Position numbers and translations under genes: made by a program. Under the pieces are notes generated by a model. It was not told where the DNA came from, made no database searches, and saw nothing but the letters and a program-made list of their open reading frames with translations. This document shows positions 503 to 29,374 of a stretch of 64,000 bases of DNA, in pieces (the first letter of the stretch is position 1; each line of letters starts with the position of its first letter). This stretch comes from Perkinsus olseni (lineage: Eukaryota): positions 1 through 64,000 of the forward strand of contig JABANN010000067.1 in NCBI GenBank assembly GCA_013115125.1, given 5' to 3'.

Positions 503-2246
503 TCACTCGCCCTCAACTAACCGTCCGTTTCCAGATTGGACCTCTCGCGGGTTTGGGCCCTCCACTGAGGCAGGGAGCACTGCAGCTCGGAGAACCTGAA
601 CGGTGAGAGACGCTCGCTAACTACTGGTAGCCTGACTAACTGTTAATAACTATCAGTGGTTCAAAATAGCCATTGGATGAATTGTGAGGTACTTACGATT
701 TCTCCTGAGCCATTCAGCCAACCAAGCGCCTCGTTCTTGATCTCAGTCAGCGGTATCAATGCCGGGCATCCCCAACTCTGACCCGTGTCATTGAAGGTGT
801 GGATAGTGGTCCAGGCCTGAAAGGTGACCCCTATCTCCTGAAGATGTTAACTAGAACATGTCGATACTGAGAGCCACCGCTGACGTGTTTAATGACGGTG
901 ATAATGTCGTGCTCTATACAATGAGCCCTACAATGCAATAGCCCCAAGCCATGAAGTTCCGAATAAACTCACAACAGTCTTCTTGACATCTTTATGATTC
1001 AGCAGCTTTATCCTTAATATGACCTCATTCCTCTTATCTGAAAATGGCCCCCAGAATTTAGCCAGCACTGCTAACTAGGTGAAGACAGCCAGTCAAGTCA
1101 GTCTTGTCAGCCTCAACCATGAAAGGACATTCGCTCCGGGCGATGCTGCATTTCTTTCCTGAGCCATCCCGTGTGCCGGTCAGATACCCCGCTCCCCCCA
1201 CCTCGAGCGTCCAGGAGGTGAATATACACGGCGAGATGCTGCTGCCCATCTTCGCACACGATACCGCCGGGGAAAACTGCCAACTGAAGCGGCATTCACC
1301 GTATTTGTATGGCGAGGATGCACGGAAAATTGTACAAGAATAGAAAGACCCACCTGGAATTTATAGTTTCCCTTCCATGTCGGCGGGGACTTGAATTCAT
1401 CACCCGGATCATACTCTTGACGACCATCAAAGCGGACCTCATGCCACTCGGGCTTCAGGGGATTCGGGTCCGTTTCGACAATGGCAGCTCTAGATCTGAA
1501 TACCTGATCACAAATGCCAAACAACGCGAACCGCAATACCCGTTTGGCGGGTATAGTCTGAACTGAACGGTATATTGTGCCTCAGTGGACCACCGCAGCT
1601 TAACAACTCGCGGCAAGTATCGGTACTCACCAGTTTGCCTTCCTGATCAAGCCAGCCGTTCTCCTTCGTTAGCTCAGATCGCTTGATGAATCTCGGTCTT
1701 CCCCAACCGAGTCCAGGGTAAATCATTCGAGTATATTCGTTTACCTATCATGAAAGACCTATGGTGGCATCCGTGATCCATGGTGAGTGTCTTATTCAAG
1801 CGATTGTTGGATTCGTTTGACGAAGGAAGTACTGTGATTCACACCGAAACAGGCGCTAGTCACAAACGCCGAAAGCACTACTATAGATTTATTGGTATCA
1901 TCATGATTAACCAGTTCAACTACGAACGCCACGATGGTGCCGAGAGGGAAGTCAGCGGGCGAGCCTGAATGTGACAGTGAGATATGGAGGATCGGGAAAT
2001 GCGGCATGCACAGCTCGGCCACCTTTCTTCTCGGTAAAATGCGTGTAAGCGCTTAGATACTTTGTCTCCCCGCGGTTTCCACTCGGATACACTTGCATCT
2101 GCTCATAGAACACTTGCACCCGGTGGCATGGGTACTGTGGTAACCGCAATGCGGCTTAGGGGAGAACCTACGTGATAGTTGAATGAATCTGTCGCCATCA
2201 CCGGGGAATATACAGTAGTGTCTTCAAGGGCAACCTGGAACTCCAT
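503..2246 (-). CDS. Tandem MATH/TRAF-domain protein, copy 1 (multi-exon; 3' end uncertain)
   Basis: Exons read MEFQV..SPVMATDSFNYH / GSPADFPLG..VELVNHDDTNKSIV / MIYPGLGWGRPRFIKRSELTKENGWLDQEGKL / conserved exon / LAVFPGG..LAVYIHLL / WTTIHTFNDTGQSWGCPALIPLTEIKNEALGWL / VLRAAVLP..GPNP. The pattern SP..F, V(Y/F)PxG..LxxY, LxNxxD, HxF...WG...GWL is typical of MATH domains and occurs twice. Confidence 0.75.
1351..1471. repeat. Ultraconserved exonic block, copy 1 (reference)
   Basis: CACCTGGAATTTATAGTTTCCCTTCCATG...CTTCAGGGGATTCGGGTCC; the minus strand encodes DPNPLKPEWHEVRFDGRQEYDPGDEFKSPPTWKGNYKFQ followed by a GTG splice donor. Confidence 0.95.
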
Positions 2247-3199
2247 GGTAGACAAAGAGTAATAGCACTGACGATACGGCTCAGGGTATGAGCCTCGAAA
2301 GTACTTTTTGACCCGGGCGGATACAGCGAACACTCTGAGAGCTGAATAACGGCAGCACGATCCGGCTCGGTCCGAGCCGCTCGGATTGTCAGACAGTTAG
2401 GCGAGGGTGACCATGGTACGCACTCAAGTATATAAACCACAGTCGAAGCCTCTGACATGAAGGCTAGGGATATTTTTTTTATCAATGTTGGCTTGTTACT
2501 CCGGCTCGGAACCTAGATAGTGAGGAACACTTAGTTGTGCAGCACGTCTCGCCGCACGCGCCTAAGATATTGCCGAACTACATTTTGCTAGAGCACTGCA
2601 CATCGACGATGCCCGGGAGGTCGTCGCATGAAGTGCTGGTAACCTGACGATGGGGTTTTCATAAAGCACTCCGCAAGACGCGCATAACTCATAAAGCTAA
2701 ACACGGAGTGCCTTTGCTTGATTGAGTGGGCTACTCCGGAGCAGCGAGCATGCTACATGAAGATGCGCTCCTCCTATATCTGACTCTGGCCGGCTTCCTC
2801 GGGGGCGAAACTGCCGAACTGCACGCAACACTCAATAGGTTGGACAAATTAAAGTGCGCCTAGAGTCCTACTAATCAGCCTTCTGCCTTGTTGCCTTGCA
2901 CGAATTAACTTCCGTCCAAGTAACTCCCGATAGACCTGAACGTTTTATTTCCCTGGGTTTATCGGCTTGTCACAGCATAGTGTAGCTACGTTACTCCCGT
3001 TGAGATAGTCCTACCACACTCTCCTCAGACGAGCTCGTACGGGCAGAGGAAAATAGGCCAATGTGCATTTGGAGGAGCATTTGATGAGAATGTGAAATAA
3101 GGTTCTACTGTGAGTCACAGGCTGTTACTCGGTGATTCCTGGCCAAATAATAAACTACGTGCAATCGGCCAAGTGCGGAGGAACGTTCGATGAAAGAGG

Positions 3200-4420
3200 A
3201 ACTATCCCTGGGCTTACAACTGATTCGCTGACATCTTCGTGGTTTAAGAGAGTGATCCTCAACGCTAAGGATTTAGGAGCCTCAGGCTCTGCCGCGCTTT
3301 CGTTGCTTGCTAATGTGAGTGAACTCAGCGGCCACATATCAATGAAATTGTCCTATACCTACTCCCTAGCAGATGGACATAGACTACCAGACCCCGGTCT
3401 CCATCACTTAATGCCGGACCCCCCGGAAATACTGCTAACTGAGGTAAAATGAGAGTTAGTACTGAAGGGAGAGCAAGAGCCGATGCTACAGACATGATCC
3501 AATCTAACTTGCCCCACCTGGAATTTATAGTTTCCCTTCCATGTCGGTGGGGACTTGAATTCATCACCCGGATCATACTCTTGACGACCATCAAAGCGGA
3601 CCTCGTGGCACTCGGGACTCAGGGGATTCGGGTCCTTTTCGACAATGGCAGCTCTGGCTCTGAATACCTAGAAACAGGTGAGCTGACAACGGATGGTATT
3701 TTCTTGTGAAACGTATCGCACCCACAAACAAGCGCCTTCCTACGTAGGTGAGGAAATCAATAGTACTCACCAGTTTGCTTTCCCGGTCAAGCCAGCCGTT
3801 TTCCTTCGTGAGTTCAGATCGTTTGATGAAGTTCCTTTCTCCCCAACCGAAGCCAGGGTAGATCATGCGATTGGATGCATTGACCTACAGTAGTACTCCT
3901 GCACTCACGATATCTCGTGCTTCGATTGGTCATCGTCAGTAACGAATTGTAGCTGAATGCTTCAGACGAGGAAACGATCCCATGAACATTACAACGGATT
4001 CTCGGGGTTCATTGTGATTAACCAATTCGACCTCGAACTTCACGTTGACACCGAGAGGGAAATCTGCTGATGAGCCTGAGGAAGGAAGATAAAGGACAGA
4101 ACGTCGTTCTGAGAATGAGCTAACACCGACATACGACAGAGTTGATACTTGAAATGCTGACAAACCCTCTGATCTGGCCCACCTCTCTTTTCAGCGAAAT
4201 TCATAAATGCCCCCAAACACCCTTCCTCTCTGTTTCTTCGCCCCTTGAGATACACCTATACCTGTTCATGAAATACTTCTGCTTTCAACGGTCCTGGGCT
4301 TAGCAGGTCTGCTCCAGCATGGGGTACGAATGGTTACGTAAAATCCGAAAGATTCCGCCGCCATGACTGGAGAAGTGACAAAAGTATTGACTTGGTCGAC
4401 CGGAAGGAAGAGACACCACG
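3200..4420 (-). pseudogene. Tandem MATH protein copy 2, probably pseudogenised
   Basis: Homologous exons present (FVTSPVMAAESFGFY; VYLKG..GCLGAF; MIYPGFGWG..GWL; conserved exon with W>C; LAVFPGG; LRITLLNHED). The first exon frame has an upstream TAA and no ATG, and I could not find the final HxF..WG..GWL exon. Confidence 0.55.
3515..3635. repeat. Ultraconserved exonic block, copy 2
   Basis: About 5 mismatches to copy 1 over 121 bp (counted by eye). Confidence 0.95.
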
Positions 4421-5375
4421 TAACAAGTTGTTACTAACAACAGAGGGCGAGGGGCGTCTCTGCTTCTGAATTTGACAAGGGTGCCCTCAGTTTGGATGCC
4501 TTGATAACACCCATAGCAGCGAATCGCTCCCAGTAATAAGAAGCACACGAGCCTTGTGTCACAAGGAGACCTACAGCGGGTCACTTCACAGGGACAACGA
4601 GGAGGCGCTTTTGCCATGATCGGATGTGCCCCTGTGGATAGAGGAATTCCGAAAAGCAGTAACCTCAATGCTGACTGATAATTCGGCTGGTGCTACCACA
4701 CATTTCCGACACATACGATATTTCGAATGCCTCTCCTGGGGCTTGAAAGATTCTACGGCCTAGGTAAAAAAAAGGTAAGCTCGAGATCGACGCTTGGTTT
4801 CTGGTGCTGCTGCGGTTGGAAAAAAGACAATATCGGTGAAACACTTAGAAGAGGATGTTGGAGTGAAGATACGATTCTTCGTGAGCGCAATTTCCGATGT
4901 GGCGGATGCCGTCTCTGATGGGGGACGGTCAGCTTCGAGTGATTAAAACGTCTGGATGTCGTGAAGCGTTCCAGACCTTGCGAACTGCACTCAAGACGCG
5001 AGCTTGCGAGACAAATTGAAATGCTTCCTTCGTTGAGGCGATCGGCTTCAATCAAAAGACTGTCATTGCAATCGCAACCTCCACCTGCAGCAACTCATTC
5101 TTCCGGCTTCACTTCTTCAACAATCCAGCTTCCATTGGAGCTTCCTCCTAAGGACCTGAACACAAGCCGGTCACTTGTATCCAAAACCGTAGAATTAACA
5201 ACTGGTCGCGAGATACTATGACAATCCTACCTTTCCTGCAATATTTCATCCGCAGCTCCTGGCGACGAGCTTGTAGAAGGAAACGCGGTGGACGAGGACC
5301 TGGAAAACCGATTTGACATGCTTCGTGTCGGAAGAACTCTGTGACACAGGGCATGTGCCATGAGCGGAGAGGCGC

Positions 5376-7170
5376 TCACTCCGTAATCGTAGGCTGAACA
5401 ATAACTCCCGATGGATTTGGACCCTCGGCTGCCGCAGGTAGGACGGATGCCCTCAGAACCTGAACCAAACGACGCTGCCGTATATTCCACCAAGACCTTC
5501 CACGATGTACCAGCTCTCCCTTGTCATCGAGCCATCCTGACCCATCTGTCCTCAGCTGGTTGATACCAATCAAGTGGTGGCATCCCCAACTAAGATCGCC
5601 TACATCGGTGAAGTTGTGCGTGGAGAACCATTTCTGAGGGAAAACCGCTCATGCCATAGTAAGATCCGCCTTCTACAGAGGACACCAGCGAGGGTTAAGC
5701 GTGCTGCAATGGCCCGTTGCCAATGGGCAATTCAACTCAATTGAGCCCGACCGGCTCGAGAATCTACTCGACGAATACCGTAATACATTTCGTCTGGAAA
5801 ACACACTAGAAAATGTGGACGGCGCTCTGCGTGTACCTACGATTGACTTGTTGGCATCTTTGTGGTTCAACAGGGTGATTCTTAGGGCGACAAAATCAGA
5901 AGCGGTAGTACCTGGGAGGAATGAAGACCGGCGGTTCTAGTGCGGTTACTTGCTCATATCATACGGAAGTAAAAGTAAAGGCGGGAGACGGACGAGCATC
6001 TGTGCTTATCCCATGTCATCAAACACATCCCACCTCTCTTCCCTAGTAAATGGATATACACTGCAAGACCTCGCTCCCCAGCATCACATTCCAGTCCTCC
6101 GGGCAATACTGCCAACTGACTCAAGGACGGATTTTGATGAATGCTCAACCCAATCATATGTCGAGGATGCTCCGAGGCGATGCTCGCGAACCCCCGCTGA
6201 GAGGTCTCCCACCTGGAATTTATAGTTTCCCTTCCATGTCGGTGGGGACTTGAATTCATCACCCGGATCATAATCTTGACGACCATCAAAGCGGACCTCA
6301 TGCCACTCGGGCTTCAGGGGATTCGGGTCCTCTTCGAGCACGAGAGTCCGAGCTCGGAATACCTGAGGAATATCAGGTGGGCTCGCGCTATATCGTTTTA
6401 GCTCATATCCGGGCAAACTGGAGAAACCTTTCTGAACAACTGCTGCAAAGAAAGGTGGGGAATTCTCAGCGCCATGCGTTCGTAGTGCCAGAAAGATGAT
6501 GGACGTACCAGTTTCTTCTCATCATCCAGCCACCCCTCTTCAGCCGTGAAATTCGCTTGGTATGCAAAACTGTGCCATCCGCAAGATAGGCCTGGATAAA
6601 TCCTCCGAGTGATAGTCCTCACCTGAAGTGGGCCCGGGTTCCACCCAGAGCCATAGCTCAACCTGTGTTGATGTCTCAACTCACGATAGACTTCGTCGGG
6701 TCCTTGTGATTAACAAGGTAAACCTCCATTCTTATGTTCTCCCCAAACGGGAACGAGCCAGATGAGCCTACCGCGACGGATTTGGTGACCAGCATGGAAG
6801 TTTGTGCGATGGCTCACTGAGCCAGGCTCAGAGATGATCGACGGTTCTCAGCCTGGCTTACCCGTTTTATTATAGATCTTGAAGTAGACCCGTAGCCTGT
6901 CAAAGTCTGTGATGTTCGTGCTAGACCAATGACACGTAGTCACTTCGACCTAATTGGAAAGGAAACGTGGATTCACGAGCCATCATCCGGTGAGCGAAAG
7001 CGTCTGACGAGGACATTTCATACGATTCCCTTTGCGACACATACTGCTTGACACAAGAGGCTCACCCGGAAGTTGAATGAGTCCGTTGAAATGGTTGGAC
7101 TCGTGGTGCATTGGTTGCTCTTTAGAGGAACTTGGAATTCTACGGTAGGAATGGAGAGATCGTGGTCACC
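5376..7170 (-). CDS. Tandem MATH protein copy 3 (ends approximate; tail may extend toward ~4750)
   Basis: PTVEFQV..TSPTISTDSFNFR; IYPGLSCGWHSF..EEGWLDDEKKL; conserved exon 6210-6330; LAVLPGG..LAVYIHLL; LNHKDANKSIV; WFSTHNFTDVGDLSWGCHHLI..GWLDDKGEL; VLRASVLP..GPNP. Confidence 0.75.
6210..6330. repeat. Ultraconserved exonic block, copy 3
   Basis: About 2 mismatches to copy 1 over 121 bp. Confidence 0.95.
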
Positions 7171-8077
7171 TGAAAGAGGAAATTTGGAAACGTTATGGAC
7201 ATGACATTCGAAGGATGATGCAGCCACGCCCGAACTCAGTTCGGCGAACTGTTCATATCAGGCTTTAACGAAGCGAGTCGACGGCGAGCGAGATACCGTC
7301 GTGGTGACTGTCTTACCCTGGCCGGAGTTGCAGTCGGGTGGCAGGATGAACCCCATGGAGGGCAAAAGGGAGACTGTCGGCAGTGCAAGTATTATTACTA
7401 CTCAAAGTGGACTTCATTCGAGTGCACGCACGCTATCCCAGCGCCAACTCAATGGAGGGTAGCAGACTTGAACACACAGGACCCATACTGTTCCAAGAAA
7501 TATGAACACTATGATTAGAGTATTTCATAGCTCGGCGAGCCTCTGAGCTGCACATGGTAAACCAACCTCCGAATGATGCTTCATAATGGTGAGTGAGAGA
7601 CAAAGTCGATCTGGATGCTCGCCGAACTTTTATCATCCGACTATGAACTACTATGGTCGGTGCCTTCAGCGACCGACCCACCTCGGGCAAACACCACTTA
7701 CCATACGATCTCACCGCACTCGCTTAGCTACCCCAGCTCCTGGCCTCATAGGCCTGCCCCAAACCAGACCACAGTGGCGAGGGACCTTGCGTCGCGGTCT
7801 GTGTGCCCACAGCTTCCTCCAACTCCAATCAGTACTCCTGGAAATATGCTGGAATGTTCAATTCAAAGCCTTTTCGACTGAAACTGATGAATACTCAGGT
7901 TAGTCCGCTGATAACAATGAGGGCTGAGATCAAAGTCCGGGGCGCTTCATTGGGGCTTCGCTCTTTTGGCCAAGGACTCAGAAACAGCTTCTGGAGAGCC
8001 ACTGGCACTGTTCGACCTGATGGAAGCGTATTACAACAACATTTAGGAAGGATAGTATATCAGAACTCGCTCCACAC

Positions 8078-9890
8078 TTACGCTCTTCCTCTACGGCGGA
8101 TCTCTCGGGGGTTTGGGCCTCCCACCGACGAAGGTAACACCGCAGCACGTAGGACCTGCGAACGCCCATTCGATGCTGACTCATTCGGAATGAGCGTAGA
8201 GCGTCAGCATGGCACGAGCGTTGTGACGATACAACCGTTCCTCAGCAGGTAACAATTGGTCAAGACCCAGGTCGTACAATCTTTCCTTTCCCATTGAGCC
8301 AACCAAGGCCTCCCTTCTTAATATCCTCTAGAGGTATCAATGTAGAGCATCCCCAACTCTGGCCCATCTCGTCGAAGGCGTGAACGGAGGTCCATGTCTG
8401 AGAGGTGACGCTGATCCCTTATAAGAAGGAATAATACTCCAGGAGTATGCTACTGAGCGAGTACAAGCTCTGCCATAGTGCAGGTGCATTAGCGACAAAG
8501 TGACTCAATCAACGCAGCCGGTGAGGTTAGAACAACTCACGATAGTTTTTGCAGGATCCTTATGATTCAGCAACTTGATCTTCAGCGTGAGGGAATCCAT
8601 AGCGTTGCTCCCTGAAAAGCCTATATAACGGAGCTGTTGAACCTCCGGAAGAGCTGGTGAGCACTCTCAACGGACGAGAGTTCCGCCGTTCGTACGAGAA
8701 GCGCTCACGGGAACTGTTTTAAGGTTGTGAACCCTAGCGCCGGGTGTTGCAATCATAGCGACCCAACTGTTCAGTGCAGTTGTCCAATACACCAAGTCCG
8801 ACTCGGTGTTGAAGATCACCTCGCGATTCCAGTAGGTGAACATACACGGCAAGGCTTCGCTGCTCATTGTTGGGCTCGATACCACCTGGGAATACCGCTA
8901 ACTACAGAGAGATATCAAAAATGGGATACACGAAACCGTTAGTCCTATCACGGCTGCCACCTGGAATTTATAGTTTCCCTTCCATGTCGGCGGGGACTTG
9001 AATTCATCACCCGGATCATACTCTTGACGACCATCAAAGCGGACCTCATGCCACTCGGGCTTCAGGGGGTTCGGGTCCTTTTCGACAATGTTAGCTCTGG
9101 CCCGGAATACCTAGAAACAGGTGAAGCGATTACGCAGGGACGACAAGACGATAAAAATGACTTGAAGTTGATCCCGCGGTAGCAACACCAGCAAGACGAC
9201 ATAGGAATTTAGTATGAACACCAACTCACCAATTGGCTTTCCTTGTCCAGCCAACCGTTCTCCTTTGTTAGCTTTGATGTGTTGGCGTACTCCTTCCATC
9301 CCCGTACAAGCCCGGGGTAGATCATTTGAGTAGAGCGAAGCACCTTCAGTGATAGTGATGGCTCAATAAGACTCGTGCTTCGGCTCATGGTTACTAGCGA
9401 CTGATACGAGTCCTGAATCGCGGTTGCTGTAGATATTACGACAGATTTCTGCGGGTCATCATGATTGACTAACTCGATCTCGTACTCCACTTCCTTACCG
9501 AGAGGAAAGTCGACTGAGGAGCCTGAGAAGTCAGGAATGAAGTGGGTCAGCATGAGAGTACGGATTGTAGACACCAATGGTGTCACAGCATGGTCTGTCG
9601 ATTCACCTTTCTTTTCGGCAAAACCCATGAAAGCGCCCAGGCATCCATTTTTCGCGTTGACTCCACTAAGATACACCACCACCTGCTCAGGTAACACTTT
9701 CACAGCACGAGGCGAGGGGGATATCACCGAGGGTTTCGAAGGGCGTGTTACAGGTCTACTCACTAGCCTAAATTCCGCGTGTGGAGGTTCGAACGCTCAC
9801 GTGAAAGTTGAATGATTCCGCTGCCATCGCTGGAGAGGTGACCGGTATGCTTTGGCTGTTAGGGTCGACTTGGAACTCCATGGCAGACAT
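8078..9890 (-). CDS. Tandem MATH protein copy 4 (3' end uncertain)
   Basis: MSAMEFQVDP..TSPAMAAESFNFH; VVVYLSG..GCLGAFMGF; EIELVNHDDPQKSVV; MIYPGLVRGW..GWLDKESQL; conserved exon 8958-9078; LAVFPGG; WTSVHAFDEMGQSWGCS..GWL; VLRAAVLP..GPNP. Confidence 0.78.
8958..9078. repeat. Ultraconserved exonic block, copy 4
   Basis: About 1 mismatch to copy 1 over 121 bp. Confidence 0.95.
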
Positions 9891-10734
9891 ACAACAATGA
9901 CACTGGGGGCGAGTCCCAAGGTATGAACATGTCGTGAATACCGGGTGTTTCACAACCTTCCCTGTGTTTTTCTCCCCGAGGTGAACCTCAACCTCTTTTT
10001 TGACCTCGAGCTTATATTACCAGGAACGTCTACTTCAGTGGGAAGAATTGCATTCAACTCCATAGCACGAAAAGATAAAGCAACTGAAATCGAGTCCAAC
10101 TTCGCCGGGCAGTTCGGGGAATCCTCAAGTTCACAGCGTGTTTGGAGAAATGTTATTCTTTGTACGACCACTTGACTCCATAATCGACAACGACAACTGT
10201 GGTCAGACTCACAGCTCAGAACAAGACCTAGGGTAGGCCACTCACCATTCGTGGCACGAAATGGTGGTTGCACGTGCAAAAAGCAGTCGGTACACTCGAA
10301 GTGCTGCGAGTGTCGCTGAGACACAGAATAGAGACACTTACCTTGACGAGTAGGTACGCTTTTCGTATGGAAGTGGGCTACTGCGCAAACGGCGGAAAGC
10401 CGACACGGGAATTTCAATCGATACTCAACTCAAAGCCGCGCTGCACTGCCACTGATAAATATCCGGAAAACGCATCGACAATCATGTTGGGTGATATCAG
10501 AGCCTCGAGAAATGTGCTTCATTCGAGCTTCACCCTCTTGGGCGAGGCCTCAGGAGATTCCTTGAGACCTATCCCTGGGAAGCCGCCGGTGGTGCTCGAC
10601 CTTAGAAATACTCCTCCACAGTATAATGGTGTGATGCATCCCTCCCACAAACCCGTTCGATCATCGAGCAAGGCAGAGGTAGAAGGCGAGTCTTAAGTCT
10701 CGATTCCTGCTACTCAAAGAACGCTATAAAACGT

Positions 10735-12465
10735 TACCTTCTGGCTGAGTGCCGTCCTCTACACTGAACCTCCACTGGGTTAGGACCTCCTACTAAGGCA
10801 GGGAGTACCGAGGCTCGAAGGACCTGGACATTAAAACAACCCATGGATGCAACGTGATGCTTAGTCAGGTTGGTCGCTGAGATACGGGATACTCACTATC
10901 TCTCCACTCGGATTAAGCCAACCGAGCTTTTCTTGTTTGATCTCATGTATAGGAACCAATGCAGGGCATCCCCAACTATGGCCGAGCTCGTCGAAGGTGT
11001 GAACAGCGGTCCAGGTCTGAGGGCCGTGTCTGTTTCGTCAGCTAGTGGGCGTTGGTAAACTAAGTCGACTACTATGGTGATACTACTGGCCCGCTGTTGG
11101 TGTTTCAGGTAACGCTAGAGATGCGGGGGTGGAAGAGCCATCGCAATGAGCGCACACTGCTTTCATCACCAGCCAAAAGCTCTCAACAACACCTACAATA
11201 GTTTTTTGGGCATCCTTGTGATTCAGCAGCTTCACCTTCACTTTCACGAAGTCAATAGTGTTGATCTCTAAAATGCAAGAACGATGCCGAAAAACCAACA
11301 GTCCTTGGCAGGGCCTCAGTTGAATCGCTCGGCTCGATCGGCGCCCTCATCACCGCAATACGCGAGTCGACCATCGTCACGTGGCACGGTTTTATTCGAT
11401 GACTCGGCATACCACCTCGCGTTCCTAATAGATGTATGTATGCAGCAAGGCACTGCTGCCCATCTTCGGATCTGATACCGCCGGGAAATATTGCCACCTG
11501 AAGACATTACTGAAGAAGCGTGAGAGATAATTTGTGCCAGTACCTAGGCTCACCTGGAATTTATAGTTTCCCTTCCATGTTGGCGGAGGCTTAAATTCAT
11601 CTCCCGGATCATACTCTTGACGACCATCAAAGCGGACCTCATGCCACTCGGGCTTCAGGGGATTCGGGTCCGTTTCGACAATGCTAGCACTGGCTCTGAA
11701 TACCTAAGAGCAGGTGAGAGAGGTGACGAAGTTCACATGCCGATGCGCCCGAGCCGACAACCTTGCTCTATATGGTACCCCGCTTCAAGGCAGTAAAAGT
11801 GCACCTATTGCAACTCGCAGTGCAAGTCTAATGAGCAGAAGAACCGCCTGGAGAACCTATACGCACCAATTTGCCCTGCGAGTCGAGCCAGCCTTTCTCT
11901 TTCGCCAGCTCAGATTTCTTCAGGAACTTTCTCCATCCCTGCCCCAGACCAGGGTAGACCAACCGAGTGCGACGGCGTACCTGCAGATATGCCTGTGCCT
12001 TGAGTCACTCGTTCAAGGCCAGTGGATCGCAAACTCCGACTAATACAATTGATTTTTGAAGGTTATCATGATTAACCAGCTCGATCTCGAGCTTCATGGG
12101 AGTCCCGAGGGGAAAATCATCTGAGACACCTAACAAACGAACAAGTCAAGTAACCGAGGGTGCTCAGGTACAGACGATCGACGGGCTGTTCTTCGTAACA
12201 CACCTTGTTTCTCAGTGAAATGCATGTAGGCACCTAGGTATATATCCTCGGAGTTGTGCTTGCCCTCGAGATGCACCGCCACCTGCTCATAGCACATTCG
12301 TGCTTCACGTGACTCGAAGCATCCTCAATTAGGGAAGAGATACCCCATCCGGCAGATGATACAGGAACTTACACAAAAGTTAAAGGAGTCTGCCGCCATC
12401 ACTGGAGACTTAGTAGCGTATTTATTTTTGTCCTTATGGACGACCTGGAACTCCAGAGTAGGCAT
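10735..12465 (-). CDS. Tandem MATH protein copy 5 (3' end uncertain)
   Basis: MPTLEFQV..KSPVMAADSFNF; IELVNHDN; VYPGLGQGWRKF..GWL; conserved exon 11551-11671; AIFPGG..LAAYIHLL; VKLLNHKDAQKTIV; HTFDELGHSWGCP; VLRASVLP..GPNP. Confidence 0.75.
11551..11671. repeat. Ultraconserved exonic block, copy 5
   Basis: About 5 mismatches to copy 1 over 121 bp. Confidence 0.95.
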
Positions 12466-17486: not shown

Positions 17487-17588
17487 CACCTGGAATTTAT
17501 AGTTTCCCTTCCATGACGGTGGGGACTTGAATTCATCACCCGGATCATACTCTTGTCGGCCATCAAAGCGGACCTCATGCCACTCGGG
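17487..17588. repeat. Ultraconserved exonic block, copy 7 (shorter, ~102 bp)
   Basis: About 4 mismatches to copy 1; identity stops ~18 bp before the retroelement insertion. Confidence 0.93.
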
Positions 17589-17606
17589 GCTCACGGGTTT
17601 CGAACC

Positions 17607-17792
17607 TGTGAGAACTGTTACGTCTCTTTTTGTGTAGTTGTCTCCATTTGTGTGTGGAGCACCCTTTAGCCTGACGCTAGCACGCTAGTGGGGTTGCCAC
17701 ACTGTATATAGATAGTTAAGTTCAGACTTGTCAGCACTGTGTGTGTTGAGTTATCCTTCAAGCGGCCTATCTACTCGGCAACTTCCTCCACA
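17607..17792 (+). repeat. Putative 5' LTR (186 bp)
   Basis: TG...CA ends with imperfect inverted termini (TGTGAGAA / TTCCTCCACA), immediately followed by a TGG-starting PBS-like sequence; its 3' end resembles that of the solo LTR at 21846-22042. Confidence 0.75.
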
Positions 17793-19180
17793 TGGCGCTC
17801 CACGATGGGTTACGACCAGCTTTCTTGGAACTCGCCGAGTCGGTTACAGAGGCGATCTTTCTGAAGGACAAGGAGGTTAACTTAGGAAGGGTTCCGGAGA
17901 AGTTCATTAATGATGTGGTTAATATTGTTTCTGCGAGTAGTGACCCAGTTGAGTGGGCCAATTTGGAGAAAGCAGTAACAGGTGGCCTTCCGGAAGTTGT
18001 GCAACTGATTTTCGGTACCGTCGACGAATTGCCTGGCATACTTCCTGTTTTCGGTCAGTTCGGACCTTACGTTCTGCCATCGATCGCTGATCAAGTGGCT
18101 GACAAGGTGGACGTGTCTGAGGATGGTATGAGGGTACTCCGAGTTAATAAGATCAATGCGTCCCGTACGCTAACTACTGATGTTCATAGTGTATTTGTTC
18201 CGGGATTTGCTGATCGTTGGAAGTCGATGGCTAGACACCTTGCTGCTGCTAAAGCCGAAGAAGCTGAGAAATTGAAGGTGAAGCAGCCTACCGGTGGAGA
18301 TTACGTGATGAAGAAGGAGGATGGCCAAGACTTACAAATTGAGGATTTGAGAGTGAAACGCCAGGACGAGGTGGTATTACCCTATGAGGTGAAGAAGATG
18401 ACTCGTGCTGAGTTAGGTGTTATGCTTAAAGAAGTTGATCGGGTACCTGTTAGTACTGATACTATCTTTCATGGTCTCAGCGATGGCACGAAGTCCCTCA
18501 GCAGATTTCATGTGGAAGTTGATGATATGGCTACGCGTCGGCATTGGGGTGCTGCACACGTATTCCATTATCTTTCGCGTGTTATTGAGAGGTCGTTGTG
18601 GACTCTGATTGACGTTAAGGTCAAGAATGATTTGGATATATCAAGTTATGTGGAAGGGGTTCGCTTGGTATGGTCTAACTTACAAACAGTTTGTGGTGGT
18701 ACAGTTGAGGCTGAGAAGTTGCTGACTCAGATGCTGGTACTATCACAGAAGCCGAGTGAGTCTACTATGAGTTACCTCTCAAGAGTCTCGGAGTATAGGC
18801 TCCAATGTCAAGCAGCCAATGTCGCCCACTGTGATGATGACTCGTATTATCAGGTGTTGTCGAGACGGGGTATGCTTTCGCCGACTCTCGCTACTCAGAG
18901 TACTATGTTGGTAGCGCCTGATTGGGTGACATGGGTCAGGGGTGTGGCTATGCTGGAGCAGCGACTTGGCGCCATAGTGAAGAAGGAGATTGCTAGCGCG
19001 GCGAAGGGCGCTAAGGATGGTAGGGTTGCTTCACCTGTCATTGATTTGACCGCTGCCCAGGTCAATGACGACTCTGCTGAGGGTGGAAAGACGAGTGGTG
19101 CAGCGGGGTCCAGTAGGAGTACTTCAATGAACAAGAAGTGTTATTGTTGTGGGAAGCTTGGGCATTTAGCACGGGACTGA
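17792..19180 (+). CDS. gag: Retrotransposon Gag-like protein, C-terminally truncated
   Basis: 462-aa intronless ORF with an MHR-like QKPSESTMSYLSRV segment; it ends CYCCGKLGHLARD-stop, a CX2CX4HX4C knuckle lacking its last Cys. Confidence 0.85.
   Translation: MALHDGLRPAFLELAESVTEAIFLKDKEVNLGRVPEKFINDVVNIVSASSDPVEWANLEKAVTGGLPEVVQLIFGTVDELPGILPVFGQFGPYVLPSIADQVADKVDVSEDGMRVLRVNKINASRTLTTDVHSVFVPGFADRWKSMARHLAAAKAEEAEKLKVKQPTGGDYVMKKEDGQDLQIEDLRVKRQDEVVLPYEVKKMTRAELGVMLKEVDRVPVSTDTIFHGLSDGTKSLSRFHVEVDDMATRRHWGAAHVFHYLSRVIERSLWTLIDVKVKNDLDISSYVEGVRLVWSNLQTVCGGTVEAEKLLTQMLVLSQKPSESTMSYLSRVSEYRLQCQAANVAHCDDDSYYQVLSRRGMLSPTLATQSTMLVAPDWVTWVRGVAMLEQRLGAIVKKEIASAAKGAKDGRVASPVIDLTAAQVNDDSAEGGKTSGAAGSSRSTSMNKKCYCCGKLGHLARD
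17793..17809 (+). other. Putative tRNA primer-binding site TGGCGCTCCACGATGGG
   Basis: TGG directly after the LTR-terminal CA, complementary to a tRNA CCA end. The cognate tRNA is not identified. Confidence 0.6.
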
Positions 19181-19336
19181 CAAGTCTGAACTTAACTATC
19201 TATATACAGTGTGGCAACCCCACTAGCGTGCTAGCGTCAGGCTAAAGGGTGCTCCAGTGGAGCAAGTGGAGCAAGTGGAGCAGCTCCACACACAAATGGA
19301 GACAACTACACAAAAAGAGACGTAACAGTTCTCACA
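19177..19336 (-). repeat. Inverted partial copy of the 5' LTR (first 128 bp plus a 32-bp insert)
   Basis: Direct reverse-complement match to 17607-17734. Confidence 0.95.
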
Positions 19337-21105
19337 GAACCCCATCCTACAGTGTGGGCTCTAGCTCTGAATACCTAGAAAGACGGCAGGCTCTATCGCG
19401 ATTAGTGCGGCTCGAATCGCAGAACAGTAGTGTACGAACATTCACAGGAGTAAAAGCAGAAGCAATATAAATGAGAATCCAGTTAGTTGATGCTGTTTCT
19501 CATCAGAGTGCGACCATTAGCCATCTTTAGCATAGAAAACGAAGAAGAATGCTCATTAGAATACCAATTTGCCGTCCTTGTCGAGCCAACCATTCTCCTT
19601 CGTGAGTTGTGAATTCTCGACGAATTCATCATATCCCCAACTCAGGCTAGGGTACACAAACCGGGCATAAGACTCTACCTACGGTGCAAGAGCGACCCAT
19701 CCTTCAACACACATCATCAGCGGGTGCATCACAAATAAGCTAGCCCCCCTCAGAGGAGGATCGCACGCTGATGGCAGGCCGTCTCTAGTCAGGAATTATT
19801 ACAATGGACGCTCGAGGGTTGCTATGATTAAGCAGATCGACTTCGACCTTCACTTTGTGGCCGAGAGGAAAGAGGTCCACGCTGGCTGAAATCGAGGACC
19901 TCTACGCTCACGTTTCAGCGTGAGAGGGAAACACAGTAATACAAGAGGCAGAAAGCCAGCTCGGGTGCCATACCAGTCCTTTGATGGAAACTCGTGTATA
20001 CACCCAAAAAAGCGTGCCTTGTGTTACCCCGACCAAGGTGCACCCTAACCTGATCATCAAAGGGCGCTCGTGCTCGATATGCTCGGTGTACATTCCGATA
20101 CAGATAACTTGGCATGAAAAATTACGCAGAAGTTGAAGCAATCCGCCTCCGTCATCGGAGAAGTGCAAAGCGGCTTGGACTGGCCAGGGTCGACTCTAAA
20201 CTCTGCCAAGGACATGAAAGGATACAACTGATACTTTACTCAGACGATAAGTATCACAAGAGATGAGCGCCGCATCCGCCAAGTAGACCAACCGCGCTTG
20301 GTAGCGACCTCACAAATTTGTAGGTGTAGAAAACCAGGTGATTAGGCGTCTGGGACGCCGGACTTCCACATGCCGCTCGATGAAAAAAATTCCCCCTACG
20401 TCGAAGTTGAGAGCTTGTTCGGCCGGTTTACTCGGCGCTGTCTTCCGAGACGGAGGAAGGCAGTGGCTAGTAGGTGCACGGTAGTGCACTCGAAGGCCAC
20501 AGCGACGTGTAGCGTACACCAATTCTAGTTGAATTTTCGATCGTTTCGTTGACCTCTCGCCCACCCTGGTAATCTGGTCTGACCGTCTCTTGATTCATCA
20601 GTGAATGACCCATCACTACCGCCGAGTACGCAGGTACGTCCTGCGGCCTTCGGGCCTGCGCCCCACGATCAGGGAGGAAGAGAGCCGGGTAACACATAGC
20701 AACATCACACTTACGGTCGGAACCGTAAGCAGTCACTGACTCGTAACTGCGCTTAACGTGTTGAACACGAGTGGAATGTTAACCGAATGGATGATGGTGA
20801 GATGAGCCACGTCGACACAGGCATATTTCGCCACTGGGCAGTGTTCAGCAAGGAACTTTTCTATAGGCTATAGGCTGCCCGATATCTGGGTTAATTTGAA
20901 ATACTACCCGACAAGTGAATAGATGGTTGAAAAGAATAAAATCAAATCAAATCAGAGGATCATCTAGACAGGCTAATTCATCCAGATGGTGGCTCAACTA
21001 AGTAGGGAAGACCGGTCTCGTACAAAGCGGACAGATGCTCGAGTGTTGTCTGAGCCACACTGAGAAAATAGCATGACGAACGGAGTCGGCAGCAGTTCGA
21101 CTCAC

Positions 21106-21195
21106 CGTCTATACATTCCTTATGGTATACGTGCTTGCACGGAAGAATTTGACATAAGTCTGCCCCCTCGAAGTGAGCCAAGCATATAGCACAGC
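21106..21195 (-). CDS. RING-H2 finger exon of a spliced gene spanning roughly 20.8-21.6 kb
   Basis: Exon between AG and GT reads CAICLAHFEGADLCQILPCKHVYHKECID (C-x2-C...C-x-H-x2-H-x2-C). Confidence 0.8.
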
Positions 21196-21822: not shown

Positions 21823-22075
21823 AGATGAGCTATCTCTATACACCCTGTGAGAGAACGATACTAAAGCAATTGTATTGTGTGCGGTTCTGTCTCTCTGTGT
21901 GGCTCTGTCTGCCGTATCCAAAAGGCTGAGCTAAGCTTAAGTGTTCCTATATTGCTAAGTAATCATTAAATAAGTTAACCCTCAACTTTTGGGGTATTGT
22001 GTTATTTATCAATGGTCACGCCTACTGCAAGTTCCTCTGACACACCCCTCAGGGGTGTATAGAGATAGCTCATCT
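21823..22075. repeat. Perfect 24-bp inverted repeat with a 3-nt loop, split by the solo LTR
   Basis: Removing the LTR and one TSD gives AGATGAGCTATCTCTATACACCCC-TCA-GGGGTGTATAGAGATAGCTCATCT. Confidence 0.9.
21846..22042 (+). mobile_element. Solo LTR (197 bp)
   Basis: TGTGAGAG...CTCTGACA termini; 5-bp TSD CACCC at 21841-21845 and 22043-22047; both ends resemble the LTR at 17607-17792. Confidence 0.85.
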
Positions 22076-22899: not shown

Positions 22900-25800
22900 C
22901 CGACTGCACACGATAGAGATTGGCTCATCCTGACCCACTAGTCTTATGAGGAACCATGCACCCCATCAGTTTCAGGTCTCTCACCGCCCACCAGTCCTCG
23001 TCGTACCTGAGAGATAATTCCCTCACCATTGTTCGGAGACAGAACGAGACATCCTGACTACAAGTCCAGGTGAACTGAAACGAAGTCTCTCGAGTCATCC
23101 CGCTCATCTGATGAGAACCGCACGGGGTCCCATCCAGAGTAGTCGGCACAAATGCGGAGGACTTTGGAATCCCTGAAACACTTAGCCGGCCCCAAAATCG
23201 CGATTATAAGGGAGACTTATCACCACTGATCCACAGCTGCAATGTATCTCCTCCGACCACCGGCAAAAGTCCGTCTAGAAAGCTCCTCAGCAATCCTCGC
23301 CCAGTCCCTAGAGTCAACCACGAGGTCCACATCTCGGGTATGTGGGAGATGGTCATTATCGCGAACGGCACCTAGAGGACGCAAATTGAAATCCGAGTTG
23401 CATGAAAATCTTACCAAGCAATGTCCCATACATTGCCATATATGATACTCCTAGGGAATCGACGACCTCTAGTACGTCTCGAAGTATTTGGTGGAGAAGA
23501 TCCGAACAGCATAGCGTGCCAAGGTTGGGAGCCGCATCAGATATCTGCATTCGTCATCAGCACACCAAGTTGGGTGATCATGGACTATCACCCCATCTCC
23601 GAGTCGTTCCCGATAGCTCTTGTTGCACTCCCCCACTCTGCTACACGGAGGTGTTCGGCAGAGAAGGTCTGCGGAAGTACTCGCACCTAGCGGCTCACTG
23701 ATCGTCGGGAGAGTCACTACTCCCGCTGAGAGCGCGCTGTAGACCCGGGCCTGGTGAATGGCTCTCAAAAGGGTATCAGGAATTCGCTGACTGTCGCTCG
23801 TGGCGTTCTCGAGTTGTCCCCGGATATATTGCTTGATAACAGCAATAGTAATGGCGATCTGCAGACACTCAAGCCACTTGCCAGTAGCTAGAGGGAGGAC
23901 GAATGGTGCCACCAGAGGCACCCAAGGCAGTACCTCGTTCAGTGTATCGTACAGGCGTTGAACGAATGTCGATGGCCGCGATGTCGGACGATACAAAGGA
24001 GAAAGTTCTACCGCAGAATCTACGAGTTTTCGGGTGCCAATTGTCCACGTGCTCAGGTCGAAGTAACCTTCCCTAGTCACACCACCGGTGACCCATAGGT
24101 TCTCTTCGTAAACTGCAGCACCCGCAGCCAGTCGAACGCCTTGAGGGAAGGTGGGGGACTTGTACCACTTAGGGTGGGACGCAGACAAGTCAGCAAGAAA
24201 GATGCTATCTAGGCCCACCACAGCTACCCAGTAGGCTTCCTCCAGTGATACCAATGTGGGGTTTGTGTGGATGGATCGGAAGGGTATAGGAGAACAGGAC
24301 CATCGAGCAAGGGATGATTCGGCTGCGCAGAAGAGGCCAGAATCGACAGCGAGTACGGCGACTTTATCCATTGCCATAGCTGAGCTGATGCACCCCTCGA
24401 ACGGTAACTCGATCTTCTCTTCTTCCCAATAGCTCTCACTATTGCGAGTCCAGGCGTCTCGCAGGAGAATCCCATCCCAAGATCGACCAGACAGGATCGT
24501 GACGATTCCGGAAGAGAGTTCTATCGATCCGTGGCAGTATCTCTTGACCACCCTGTCAGGAACTCTATTCGCAATACAAACGACCGAACCGTTGTCTTTA
24601 AGAACGCACTTCGTTGATACAGGCCGGTCGAAATCCGTGAGTCCACCGAATATTTCCACGGTATCCCCTTGCGACACTGCCTGGTGGTAGCTGGAAGCAT
24701 CGACATGCCCCTCGACAGACAAAGACTGCCAATGCTTGATCGAGTCGTTGTAGAGCCATACATCGGCAAGCCGTCCCAATGGAATATCTCGGAGTACCAC
24801 CGACCCATGCCGCCCGTTGAGACCAACTTCACGAGACATGTACGAATTAGTAAAGGTATTGTTCACAAGGCCATGACCTCCAATAAGGAGGAGACGGCCT
24901 TCGACGACCACTAAACTGTGGCCAGCACGTGGAGACCAATCGGTGGCCCGATAGCCGACACGGCACCATTCTTTTGAAGGAGCTGGACACTCCCAGGACT
25001 TCACCTTCTTCCTGGCAGCGACGAGTGCAACAGTATTGAACTGCGACTCATGGTAAACTATCCGCGACTCACAACTCTGACTCGACAGCTGGCATCTACC
25101 AGAGCGTACGTCGTAGCTCCCTGACTGACAAAGGCTCTCTTCCAAGCAGTAAGATGAACATTTCTGGAGATCGTTGGTGAAACGATTCAGCAAGTCCTGC
25201 CAAACGTCGCAGCGCGCTCCAAGTGGGATGTAATCGAATTTGCCGGGCAAATCTGAAGGCTGCATCGAGTTATCCGAGTCGCTGGGGCGATACCCACCGT
25301 GAAGGGGGCAAGTAGACACACTGTTAGGTAGGGGAGTCATACCATCGTATGAGAGGCCACGAGCCCAAACGACGCCGATGGCTAAGTATCGCAGCCCATC
25401 ACAAGCAGCACACTGCTGGGGAACCGTGACACGAGGTGTCCATACCGGAGCTGGGTATTCCTGCTGACGCACTTCAAGTGCCTCAATGAGATCTGTGGAG
25501 CCGATGACTTTGAGAGCCTTCGAGAGAGCAGGCGCGTCTATGAGCAGGCTAGACAAGACTAGCCAAAGCCGCTCCTCCTCGGAGTGAGCCCACGCACTTG
25601 CCGATGCTGGCCGACCGATGTTCCTGGACGAACCCACCGATGGCATGCAGGCCTGTCTTATCTCGCGAGATTGAGCTCGGATGAGCTCTAAGATCATCGA
25701 TGACTCTGCACCAACGCCAGCTGGGCATACCAGGACATATTTTCTGACAGACTGTGCCAAGGAATGATGCACCGGTGGTACGCACGAAGAGTCGCGCCCG

Positions 25801-25946
25801 GTAGACCACGGTGGCCTCGTTTGCCAGGACGTAAAATCGAAATCAAAAGTACCCTCCGGAAGGCCAAACTTGGAGCTCGGTTCGTAGTTTGGCGTGTGTG
25901 GGAGCAGCTGTTCAACATACAGTGAAAATAGTAGGGAGAACTTCAT
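22900..25946 (-). CDS. Kelch-repeat / LicD-family nucleotidyltransferase protein (3' end uncertain)
   Basis: Long first exon with Kelch motifs (PRAGHSLVVVEGRLLLIGG, VEIFGG, LWVTGG), a PAN/apple-like CSSYC..C..YD..GRCQLS and a hydrophobic segment; later exons read YMAMYGTLLG/AVRDNDHLPHTRDVDL, the LicD signature. Confidence 0.75.
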
Positions 25947-27305
25947 GACAAAGTTCTAAAGTAAAGGAACAGAGTTCTGGCGAGCTCGACACAGAGCCCA
26001 TATTCAAAGTCGAAGGACACGCACTTCGAGCCGGCACCGGTGTTGGACCCCAAACGGATACACGCGGATTATGAACAATCAACCATCAGTGATAGACTAT
26101 AAGATTTCCCTTGAGTTTTGAATGCGACTTACCAATCACGGATGCAGGCTTGACATGGTTGCTGTGCGATTGTGGTTAGTAACCACTGCCAGTGGTGACC
26201 ACTGAGTGTTCCACTGGCTGAGTCCGAGCGGAGTGAAATCGACCCAACGATGCTGGAACTATCCGGAAATGAATGCCGTGTAATACTGCACAGACATTCT
26301 TGATAGTAAAAAAAGATTGGCTGGGAGTGCTCGAGAGCGACTTGGGACTCAAGAAAAAGCCAACAAGTAATGCTGTCCCGGAGAGCCACTCGGGGGTCGC
26401 AGTGTTCTACACTTTGAACACAACTCTGCAAACCAGAGTTCTACAGCAGGGCATTATCCAGCGTCACCATTGCTACGGACAACAAAGTTCATCCGAGTTG
26501 TTATTGACTATCACGAAATGGCATGAGCATGCTCGGAATTGCCTTTATCGAATCATCTTCGTTGACCCTGATGACGGCGACTCAGCGAATCTGACTACTT
26601 CTTCCTTGGCTTCCAACGTGGCGGTGACTCAGCCCCGGACGCTGTTGAGTGCTGGTTCCAAGACTGCAAACACCTCTGGGCTGAAAACACAAGAAGATCC
26701 TCAGTGAGTAACGCACCCTTTGCCAAAGAAAGGCGGGATGCCACTTTGGCCCCTCGATGCTCTCTTCTAAACCAACAAGTCAAAGGGCGCTGCACTAACC
26801 GCGACGTTATACTGTTCCGACTAGCTCAAAGTTCGTACTTTTACGAGGGTAGCGATGATCCTGCGAGGATGCTGTATGTTTAAATCGCTGATCCTATCTT
26901 GCTCCGACACGAAGCTACGGTAGAGCTGAGCTAAGTAGCGGGTGATGAGAAAAAACCGAGTAAAGATTGGACTCCAAATGGCAAAACCCGGGTGTTGTGT
27001 TCTCAATCAGTCAGCCTCATCACAATGCTGCACGACGAGGTTATTCACTTCCAGTGAAACTCTGCATCTACACACTGAGAGCTACACATGATAAACTTCA
27101 TATTGATACTAAACACAGATCCGAGCGGTACTGATACTGATAAATGCTCAAGAAAAAGAGCGATGACTGCGTCGAAGCGACTGATGTATGGATCATGCTG
27201 AACTCCGGGAAGTATGACGAAATCAAGTTCATTCGAGCTTCACTACTTTGCTCGACAACACGGAAGAATTCCCGGTTGGGTCGTCATTCGACCTGAGGAA
27301 TGCAG

Positions 27306-29374
27306 TCAGATGACGTAAGCAGCAGTAGCCGCGAATATCCGAGGCAAGCAGGAATGACCCTCAACCGCGACTCTGTGGTGTAGGCAATGCTGGTCCACGA
27401 TCGTATGCTCTCTCCCAATCCACTTTCTCTTTCGAGACAGGAGCTCCCGCGGGTCAGGTCCTGCCGGTGAGGCGGGAAAAATCGCAGCTCGAAGCACCGA
27501 ACAATTCACCACTGATGAGTCACCAGTATCCTGTTGTGATTGCGTCTACTGCAGAAGTCATCAGAATGGGATAGAAGTCCAGACTCAGTCTACACAAGTC
27601 TGCAGAAGTTGCACACTCACAACTTCTCCTTTGGCATCAAGCCAACCAAGGTCTGTGGCGGTGAGTTCTTCAATATGCAATAATGCGGGGCATCCCCAAC
27701 TCTGTCCTATTTCATTAAAGGTGTGGACGGAAGTCCAGGCCTGAAACATTAACCCGATCAGACCTTAGTACCACTGCGAATGTACACTGCAACGCGCTGT
27801 CCACGATACAATGATTCTTCGTGCTGGGCGAGGCTCGCTGAGCGAGCAGAACTCGAAGCCAGGTAAAGTGAGTTCCGTTGACGTTGGGTGATCCGTCACA
27901 GCAGAAATAGCACAACCAGTCCCTAAATTAAAAGCAAACTCACAATAGTCCTCTCGGGGTCTTTATGATTCAGCAACCTCATCTTCAACTTGACAGGGGT
28001 GGTAGCTTGGCCCGCTAAAAAAGCGTGATCGAACTAGCGTCGTTCGATGTGCCGGCGATACACTGCGGCCCGTATCATACCTCGCACTCTCAGTAGGTGA
28101 ATGTATGCGGCAAGGCTGAGCTGCCCATCTTCGGATCTGATACCACCGGGGTAAACTGCCACCTGAACAGACATAGAATGGGATGCGTAGACAAATTACG
28201 AACAATGCGAACCCACCTGGAATTTATGGTTTCCCTTCCATGTCGGTGGGGACTTGAATTCATCACCCGGATCATACTCTTGACGACCATCAAAGCGGAC
28301 CTCATGCCACTCGGGCTTCAGAGGGTTTAGGTCCTCTCCTACGATCTGGGCTCGAGAAACCTAGCAAAAAGCGAGACATTCGATCATGGATTATACCACG
28401 ACGAATACAACTCGAAGTTCGTGTTTGAGTGGAATCTCATCGTTATCATGCATGGGATGAACTCGGATAGATCTCGAACGCACTAACTCGTCATCCTGGT
28501 CAGAACAACCCGTCCCCACCGAAAGCACGGGGGACTTCTCCTGTATGGCAACTTGCCCATTCGGAAGTGTTACCGCAGCCCTTAAGACCTAACAGACAAA
28601 CACTGTGCGATAAACTGAGCACTAATTTTTTGACAAACGAGGAACTGACACCGCATAACTCGGTGTTCCTTAGTTATCACAAGGTTCCCGCCTTCATCCA
28701 GCCATCCCTCCGCGGGATTCAATATTTCAGGTACCGTTAGCAAGTCCCAGCCCATTCCCCGGTTCTTCTCGCAGAATTTGTGCACGCCAGACATTACCTA
28801 CGATGGTTCTAGGGGAATCAGTCAGTCCAGGAACGGACTGATAATCGCCAACACCAAGAAAACTCACTGCAGATGATGGCATAAATCGAAGCTCCACTAA
28901 CAGCAGAATTTGCACAACATTTCCGGAGAGAGAACGACCGAGAACCACTCACTCCGCTTCGTATAACCCACTCACAAATGACTCGCTGAAGTCCTCCTGA
29001 TTGATAACACTGATTTGACATTTAACCCCAGCAAATTGACACTGTAGACCAAACCTGCGAGTAATATCATCAGGAATATCCCGATGGCATTCACGTCACT
29101 GCGAAAAAGCAAGGAACTCTGGGATATAAACCCAATTGACACGTTAATCTATCTCTATTCAGCTTACCTTTCCTTCCTTGCCATTCAACATAAGCAGTTA
29201 AATACCGCGGTACACGCCGTGTATCGCCGCGAGGGAAAACGAGTAACTAGCAGAGCGAAGATTGGGGGACTACTGGAGCAGAAGTTGGAATCGACTAGCC
29301 TCGGGCGAACACCAATCCAACGCCCTCTCTCTGCTTGTGCGACAAACCCGAACCCGAACTTTGAACTGCATCAT
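27306..29374 (-). CDS. Tandem MATH protein copy 8 (displaced; divergent N-terminal domain; start uncertain)
   Basis: LVFPRGD..YLTAYVEW; CQISVINQEDFSESFV; HKFCEKNRGMGWDLL..EGWLDEGGNL; conserved block 28214-28321; AVYPGG..LAAYIHLL; HTFNEIGQSWGCPALL..GWLD; VLRAAIFP..GPDP. Confidence 0.72.
28214..28321. repeat. Ultraconserved exonic block, copy 8 (~108 bp)
   Basis: About 2 mismatches to copy 1, although this gene is otherwise the most divergent and lies ~10.7 kb from copy 7. Confidence 0.95.

Follow-up and report, generated by a model that had tools for sequence, protein, structure and literature searches.

The window analysed here is a stretch of 64,000 nucleotides from Perkinsus olseni (contig JABANN010000067.1 of assembly GCA_013115125.1, positions 1 to 64,000), which carries eight related MATH-domain genes, designated A to H, on the minus strand. 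P. olseni is an alveolate whose hosts are commercially important molluscs. One exon of these genes, E5, is kept alike among the copies, and we consider it quite probable that this is the work of short-tract ectopic gene conversion, acting on a segment that is also strongly constrained as protein. A sequence-only reading of the window had described E5 as a nucleotide-frozen cassette, and had proposed recurrent localized gene conversion, a recombination anchor for shuffling domains, or an overlapping DNA or RNA element as its cause. The first of these proposals is supported by a silent divergence (dS) about ten times lower in E5, by an E5 tree that follows the species, and by haplotype variants that are common to paralogues. 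The same reading had ranked the block as the best candidate for an undescribed system in the window. We found no support for that view: as matters stand, the pattern is an expected outcome of tandem duplication, most likely ordinary concerted evolution and no new system.

The conserved cassette is exactly one exon

Spliced minus-strand models of the eight genes were built with annotated proteins as guides. The genes have about ten short exons each in a conserved pattern, and the cassette corresponds exactly to E5, which is in phase 0 and is bounded in all eight copies by an AG acceptor and a GTG donor. The exon is 150 nt long in genes A to G, where the G copy is split by a transposon, and 144 nt in gene H. 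When the segment 1351-1510 was compared with the window by blastn, the eight reported copies were recovered on the same strand, starting at 1351, 3515, 6210, 8958, 11551, 14393, 17487 and 28214, with 91.1-95.0% identity to copy 1 over alignment lengths of 116-157 nt. A 90-nt probe with up to 3 mismatches allowed found 5 of the 8 copies and nothing in 100 shuffled sequences. When the whole gene B unit was used as the query, the cassette was the sole long match of high identity; the other exons matched at 72-82% or not at all, and the introns did not match.

The E5 exons, all on the minus strand, are located as follows. E5 of gene A lies at 1354-1503 and that of gene B at 3518-3667, the latter with its AG acceptor and GTG donor and a 100% match to annotated P. 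olseni proteins. Gene C E5 occupies 6213-6362, and a contig links the E6 acceptor of this gene at 6115 to a cassette donor. The core of gene D E5 (8961-9110) is identical to that of gene A (dS = 0). Gene E E5 (11554-11703) has a gene-specific S>P replacement, which is kept in the alleles from other assemblies, and gene F E5 (14396-14545) has E>K and Y>C. In gene G the exon consists of a 3' part of 116 nt (17490-17605) and a 5' part of 34 nt (19341-19374) cut off by the inserted element; joined, they make up 150 nt in frame. Gene H E5 (28217-28360) has no silent core difference from gene C (dS = 0).

Spliced contigs from two runs of different studies (X8 and X10), which we took to be RNA by guess, agree with the models. 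They contain CT..AC joints, 15 of them among those listed and 47 further ones besides, and none of these 15 is present in the DNA runs X7 and X9. Fourteen of the 15 correspond to predicted introns of gene A (4) and gene C (10), and the matched joints include the E4-E5 junctions at 1503/1631 in gene A and 6362/6509 in gene C.

The edges of the homogenised segment differ on the two sides, as the sequence-only reading had noted. On the donor side identity ends sharply at intron position +3/+4, after GTG[G/A], in all eight copies. Toward the acceptor it fades: genes A to F are similar across the whole exon, and in G and H the similarity is lost some 116-124 nt from the donor. The first 17 codons of E5 are 84.8% identical among A to F, and the last 33 codons, which we call the 99-nt core, are 95.3% identical among all eight, with only 0-5 nt per copy differing from copy 1. 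All of the listed replacements (W>C, Y>C, Y>H, S>P and E>K) were found, and E>D and T>S as well. The neighbouring exons are diverged (55-64% identical), and the introns do not align above chance: introns 4 and 5 scored 0.53 and 0.59 against 0.47 for shuffled sequences (standard deviation 0.18), in a global alignment with a crude score that places the introns near the shuffled level. In tblastx the exons adjoining the cassette are homologous between copies, yet 35-74% identical as protein.

The placement of the block at the junction of the two MATH domains was borne out by Pfam and by an AlphaFold model. The E5 product comprises the final beta-strand of MATH1 (LVFRARA), followed by a short linker and by the opening strands of MATH2, and the Pfam MATH_2 match begins inside the cassette, at profile position 17. 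The secondary structure was taken from a low-confidence model of the allelic protein P0007 made with a 10-row alignment (mean predicted local distance difference test score, pLDDT, 60.7; below 50 for residues 129-155, which are the linker and first MATH2 strand), and the model was used for this placement only.

Silent divergence is low in E5 only

Over all paralogue pairs E5 was 88.9% identical, with a dS of 0.29 and a replacement divergence (dN) of 0.082, whereas identity in E3, E4 and E6-E9 was 55-64%, dS ranged from 1.5 to saturation and dN was 0.29-0.45. In the five complete genes, third positions varied at 12 of 50 codons of E5 compared with 155 of 176 elsewhere (Fisher p = 7.5e-18). Silent divergence thus differs about tenfold between E5 and its flanks, and the whole of E5 looks about ten times younger than the neighbouring exons. 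Within the core, dS was 0.18 and dN 0.022, and in the non-adjacent pairs A-D and C-H the core dS was 0.

The likeness of the copies is real and statistically overwhelming, but this exon is not frozen at the nucleotide level. Sixteen sites vary in the core, 9 silent and 7 replacement, mostly as singletons, and silent sites there change about eight times faster than replacement sites; "nucleotide-frozen" was therefore an overstatement, and the core silent sites behave like free sites of young copies. Nor are third codon positions as conserved as the others, as had been claimed, the whole-exon identity at positions 1, 2 and 3 being 0.899, 0.935 and 0.833. The companion claim, that protein-level selection does not explain the conservation, holds for the silent sites and fails for the rest. 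No other part of the protein is as well conserved as the E5 segment in either species: its 50 residues account for 30 of the 57 invariant columns of a 10-protein alignment (A1), and the 17 residues GDEFKSPPTWKGNYKFQ are invariant across P. olseni and Perkinsus chesapeaki.

Such conservation invites an account by purifying selection on the protein together with codon preference, with no exchange between copies, and we regard this as very unlikely. Codons for the same residue were identical in 977 of 1133 comparisons (86%) in E5 but in 32-56% in the other exons, and codon preference is too weak to supply the difference. Such an account would also need parallel changes, in paralogues that predate the species split, to produce the residues that are fixed differently in P. 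olseni and P. chesapeaki, as described below.

E5 groups by species and the flanks by older paralogy

The P. chesapeaki data consist of three annotated protein cassettes, two in P0002, a gene model that is probably a fused annotation, and one in P0011. All three read [N/D]EHEV, REEY and [D/G]IGDEF. In the eight window copies and all alleles of four other P. olseni assemblies the corresponding motifs are EWHEV, RQ[E/D/K]Y and DPGDEF, with exceptions at the first motif only (ECHEV in one copy, AWHEV in some alleles). The protein identity of the core was 0.91-1.00 within P. olseni (28 pairs) and 0.88-0.97 within P. chesapeaki (3 pairs), and 0.76-0.85 between the species (24 pairs), with no overlap between the within- and between-species ranges. 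By comparison, the identity of the C-terminal domain was about 0.5 in within-olseni, within-chesapeaki and between-species pairs alike.

The phylogenetic trees gave the same contrast. In the tree of the C-terminal domain, genes C and F of P. olseni were joined with the P. chesapeaki sequence Pc_11 with support of 94/94 (E6-E8) and 95/94 (full C-terminal part), and monophyly of the P. chesapeaki sequences was rejected (p values of the approximately unbiased test, p-AU, 0.022 and 0.017). Pc_11 also has the distinctive C-terminal tail of gene C. This grouping and the common tail indicate that at least two subfamilies predate the species split. The E5 tree, on the other hand, was split by species with support of 96/92, and the clade of C, F and Pc_11 was rejected (p-AU 0.0018). 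Judged from these alignments and trees, a species-wise E5 between flanks of older paralogy is the classical signature of concerted evolution, in both species.

Variants are common to paralogues of one haplotype

Proteins from five P. olseni assemblies were used for the comparison of alleles. All window copies have N at codon 14; in other P. olseni assemblies, alleles of C, D, E and H have T there, so that several paralogues of one haplotype have the same variant. An E>A replacement two residues before HEVRF is common to alleles of E and B. Some window singletons (D in C; K and C in F) are missing from some alleles, and the S>P of gene E is present in all of its alleles. Within the window, the four possible combinations of sites 19 and 32, in the 5' part of E5, are all represented among A, B, D/F and E, a sign of mosaic structure, and genes E and F share silent variants at sites 111 and 123. 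Contigs of other isolates differed from the window in this region by about 1.4-4.6% (12 of 840, 17 of 712 and 29 of 632 letters), the same order as the mean core difference of 4.7% between paralogues.

The sequence-only reading had allowed for an artefact of assembly or polishing. Short-read graph contigs do break inside the cassette, and a collapse of copies is conceivable on that ground. Nevertheless, proteins of one P. chesapeaki and five P. olseni assemblies show the same pattern, every copy has differences of its own, and contigs of four further runs from three studies cover the region. We are almost certain that the identity did not arise in this way. Over positions 1-20000 of the window, the graph contigs of each of the four runs terminate or branch within the cassette.

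Exon-limited gene conversion as the favoured explanation

The array members would repeatedly overwrite one another's E5 by short-tract ectopic gene conversion, while the flanking exons and introns would be too diverged to pair and so would keep diverging. Strong protein constraint has probably kept enough nucleotide identity in E5 for conversion to go on, and the unconstrained downstream intron would set the hard edge of the homogenised tract. At the molecular level the process would be break repair from a paralogous template; we infer both this mechanism and the reason for the exon-sized limits.

Several points weigh against gene conversion. No pair of genes has intron-5 sequence in common, and in intron 4 only about 16 nt at the 3' end are common, to B, D and E; this lack of spill-over counts because a purely DNA-level process might sometimes enter introns. 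By the standards of efficient homologous repair in yeast or mammals, an island of homology of only 100-150 nt is short. A Sawyer-type test on the longest run of agreeing variable sites was significant in 0 of 10 pairs; the best pair, A-E, gave a pairwise p of 0.037 and a global p of 0.145, in a self-written permutation test that has low power when a whole family is homogenised. Finally, the cross-species evidence is at the protein level and comes from three annotated P. chesapeaki copies in two gene models, one of them the fused P0002; with a comparison of this kind, there may be some constraint on the silent sites of E5.

No sign of an overlapping nucleotide-level element

The possibility was considered that E5 carries a nucleotide-level signal (for example a target for small RNAs or antisense RNA, a splicing control or an RNA structure) which would be common to the family and would co-evolve with its reader in each species. 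The end of identity right at the E5 donor in 8 of 8 copies would fit selection on the mature RNA, and the last 26 nt of E5 contain no silent change in any copy, although this absence is not significant (about 2.3 changes expected, by rough estimate). The scan with Rfam gave 0 matches at the gathering score in the 64-kb window. The predicted fold of E5 with its flanks was no more stable than those of shuffled sequences (z = -0.20; 86 of 200 shuffles folded as well). There is no conserved second reading frame, since the other two sense frames have stops in 8 of 8 copies, and antisense frame 0 is open in A to F but has stops in G and H. The faster change of silent than of replacement sites in the core also speaks against such an element. 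The proposal of an overlapping DNA or RNA element is thus left unsupported by the Rfam scan, the fold, the frames and the silent-site rate. Furthermore, at least 4 residues differ between the species in all copies, so the sequence of E5 is not fixed, and all eight copies have one orientation, with no inverted copy in the window. We judge this explanation quite unlikely; gene conversion on a protein-constrained exon remains the one we prefer.

Exchange between N- and C-terminal halves

The homogenised E5 might also be kept as an in-frame crossover anchor for reassorting the N- and C-terminal MATH domains; selection would then act on shuffling, with conversion as its means. Separate trees of the two domains were incongruent for gene F. 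In the N-domain tree, D and F were joined with support of 88/92 and a C+F grouping was rejected (p-AU 0.026); in the C-domain tree, F was placed with C and Pc_11 with support of 95/94 and a D+F grouping was rejected (p-AU 0.003). The tested groups were chosen after the trees had been viewed, and these p values are therefore optimistic. At least one exchange between the N- and C-terminal halves is likely from these trees. Gene H, in which a normal cassette follows an atypical N-terminal part, fits the same idea, and DNA contigs of two other isolates, which join genes C and F at homologous E8 positions, tell that the array does rearrange.

The anchor idea accordingly stands as history, through the incongruence for gene F, and falls short as a selected shuffling function. 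The incongruence is what crossing-over in the only common homology would leave, and is therefore no proof of selected shuffling; one ancient exchange is expected from any island of homology in a tandem array. The breakpoint is not placeable inside E5, and the sole polymorphic rearrangement found is in E8, outside the cassette. We think it unlikely that shuffling is what E5 is kept for. If it were, the incongruent trees and the C/F contigs would be traces of domain reassortment, and E5 would offer a route to diversified domain combinations in a parasite of commercially important molluscs.

Two observations concern these joints. The fifteenth of the spliced joints described above runs from the E6 acceptor of gene C at 6115 to the cassette donor of gene E at 11554, the sole cross-gene joint among those listed. 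It was considered as a cross-gene chimera and rejected as a mapping ambiguity, because one side of it spans only 22 nt, a stretch that every copy has in identical form. The C/F contigs come from X7 and X9 (depth 38-46) and concern the E8 exons of C and F at 5592 and 13984; they run from F-like sequence upstream to C-like sequence downstream through 21 bridging letters. They would represent either a chimeric gene with about 8.4 kb deleted on another haplotype, or a third paralogue outside the window.

Comparison with known gene families

Similar cases are described in two earlier reports. In the mammalian tandem pair TLR1/TLR6, one region is more alike between paralogues than between orthologues and the rest follows orthology, which was explained by conversion limiting the divergence of a constrained part (Kruithof et al. 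2007, PMC2077338). In KRTAP1, an example of concerted evolution in tandem gene families, recombination makes the repeats of one genome more alike than the orthologous ones of related species (bioRxiv 10.1101/282418). As in TLR1/TLR6, one defined region is homogenised here between tandem paralogues within a species. Unlike that pair, with two genes and a region of about 300 residues, the present case involves eight genes and a tract of about 100-150 nt that is a single exon, and the comparison rests here on two species, the second at the protein level. It also differs from families of the KRTAP1 type, in which whole coding regions are reported to be homogenised: here a single exon is, and silent sites in the remaining nine or so exons have reached saturation. 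The case illustrates how conversion, together with constraint on the protein, can hold one exon constant while the others saturate.

The var genes of Plasmodium falciparum contain homology blocks, short conserved stretches that serve as in-frame recombination points and create chimeric intact genes. The present array resembles them in having a short conserved stretch inside a diverse multigene family of an alveolate parasite, and differs in that ongoing formation of chimeras at the cassette was not seen. The MATH genes showed no sign of being surface antigens; signal peptides and expression switching were not looked for. Unlike other MATH/TRAF-like proteins, the products have two tandem MATH domains without a BTB, RING or protease partner.

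The family appears in these two species only, in two protein searches. The 50-residue translation of the block matched P. olseni proteins at up to 100% identity and P. chesapeaki proteins at 76-80%; the 16 proteins with an E value of 0.001 or lower all came from these species, and a full-length protein as the second query added no other species, so that no two-MATH family was found beyond them. A scan of metagenome contigs for perkinsid relatives gave 126 pattern matches, of which 0 were confirmed. Among titles and the opening parts of abstracts, no literature was found on Perkinsus MATH-domain genes or on gene conversion in this family.

Organization of the array and its neighbourhood

Seven two-MATH-domain genes form a tandem array at 203-20215 on the minus strand, according to the gene models and to Pfam matches of MATH_2 and MATH on allelic proteins. 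The allelic protein P0007 matched PF22486 (MATH_2) with 85.4 bits (cut-off 32) and PF00917 (MATH) with 32.1 bits (cut-off 21.2); P0020 matched MATH_2 with 51.1 bits and MATH with 21.9 bits, and P0009 matched MATH_2 with 52 bits. In the gene models, all on the minus strand, gene A extends over 2246-203, the truncated gene B over about 4403-3155, gene C over 7356-5095, gene D over about 9890-7947, gene E over 12465-10519, gene F over 15211-13739 and gene G over 20215-16344. The eighth copy, gene H, with its atypical N-terminal part, lies apart at 27306-28794 on the same strand, with a Kelch/PAN gene between G and H.

In the 3' part of gene B (2256-3438), exons are recognisable through E7, with an E6 of 76 nt, and no E8-E10 was found before gene A starts. 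Two public models are fused: P0003 combines B and A, and P0001 combines parts of C, B and A and has three cassettes. The common exon breaks short-read contigs and coincides with the fused models P0001, P0002 and P0003, which calls for caution in the annotation of Perkinsus; in practice the cassette is one reason why assemblies and gene models at this locus come out fragmented or fused.

The normal cassette of gene H is preceded by an E4/E8-like exon (GWD...GWLDEGGNL) and by an additional one similar to the start of E5/E9 (VLRAAV...). The first half of MATH1 was not recognised in this gene, whose domain architecture is rearranged. The interval from gene G to gene H holds, at 23469-25955 on the minus strand, an open frame of 828 residues with PAN and Kelch matches. 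It resembles the N-terminal part of P. chesapeaki P0002, which runs on into two MATH genes, and so the neighbourhood is syntenic between the two species; the orthologous P. chesapeaki locus encodes FOL47_008939 and FOL47_008940.

An inserted element in gene G

The element inside E5 of gene G (17606-19337) is 1.73 kb long and has terminal inverted repeats, with 55 nt at 100% and 87 nt at 97% identity. A 3-bp duplication (GTT as read on the gene strand) flanks it. Its plus strand carries an open frame of 476 residues, with a weak CCHC zinc-knuckle match at the end of the frame. The ends of the element are multi-copy, with a depth of about 600 compared with about 60, in two DNA runs. The geometry is as described for intron-generating transposons ('introners'); the portion of an introner survey covered by a term search (PMC9860276) has no mention of Perkinsus. 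Since the first GTT gives a GT and the element ends in CAG, splicing there would restore E5 exactly. Removal of this insert was absent among the spliced joints listed. E6 of gene G (17346-17441) is 96 nt long, compared with 76-82 nt in the other copies, and the extra 14 nt resembles a local duplication and shifts the frame. With this frameshift and the insertion, the gene G copy of this haplotype may be a pseudogene. Its allele P0013, in which the insert is modelled as spliced out in this way, reads through normally.

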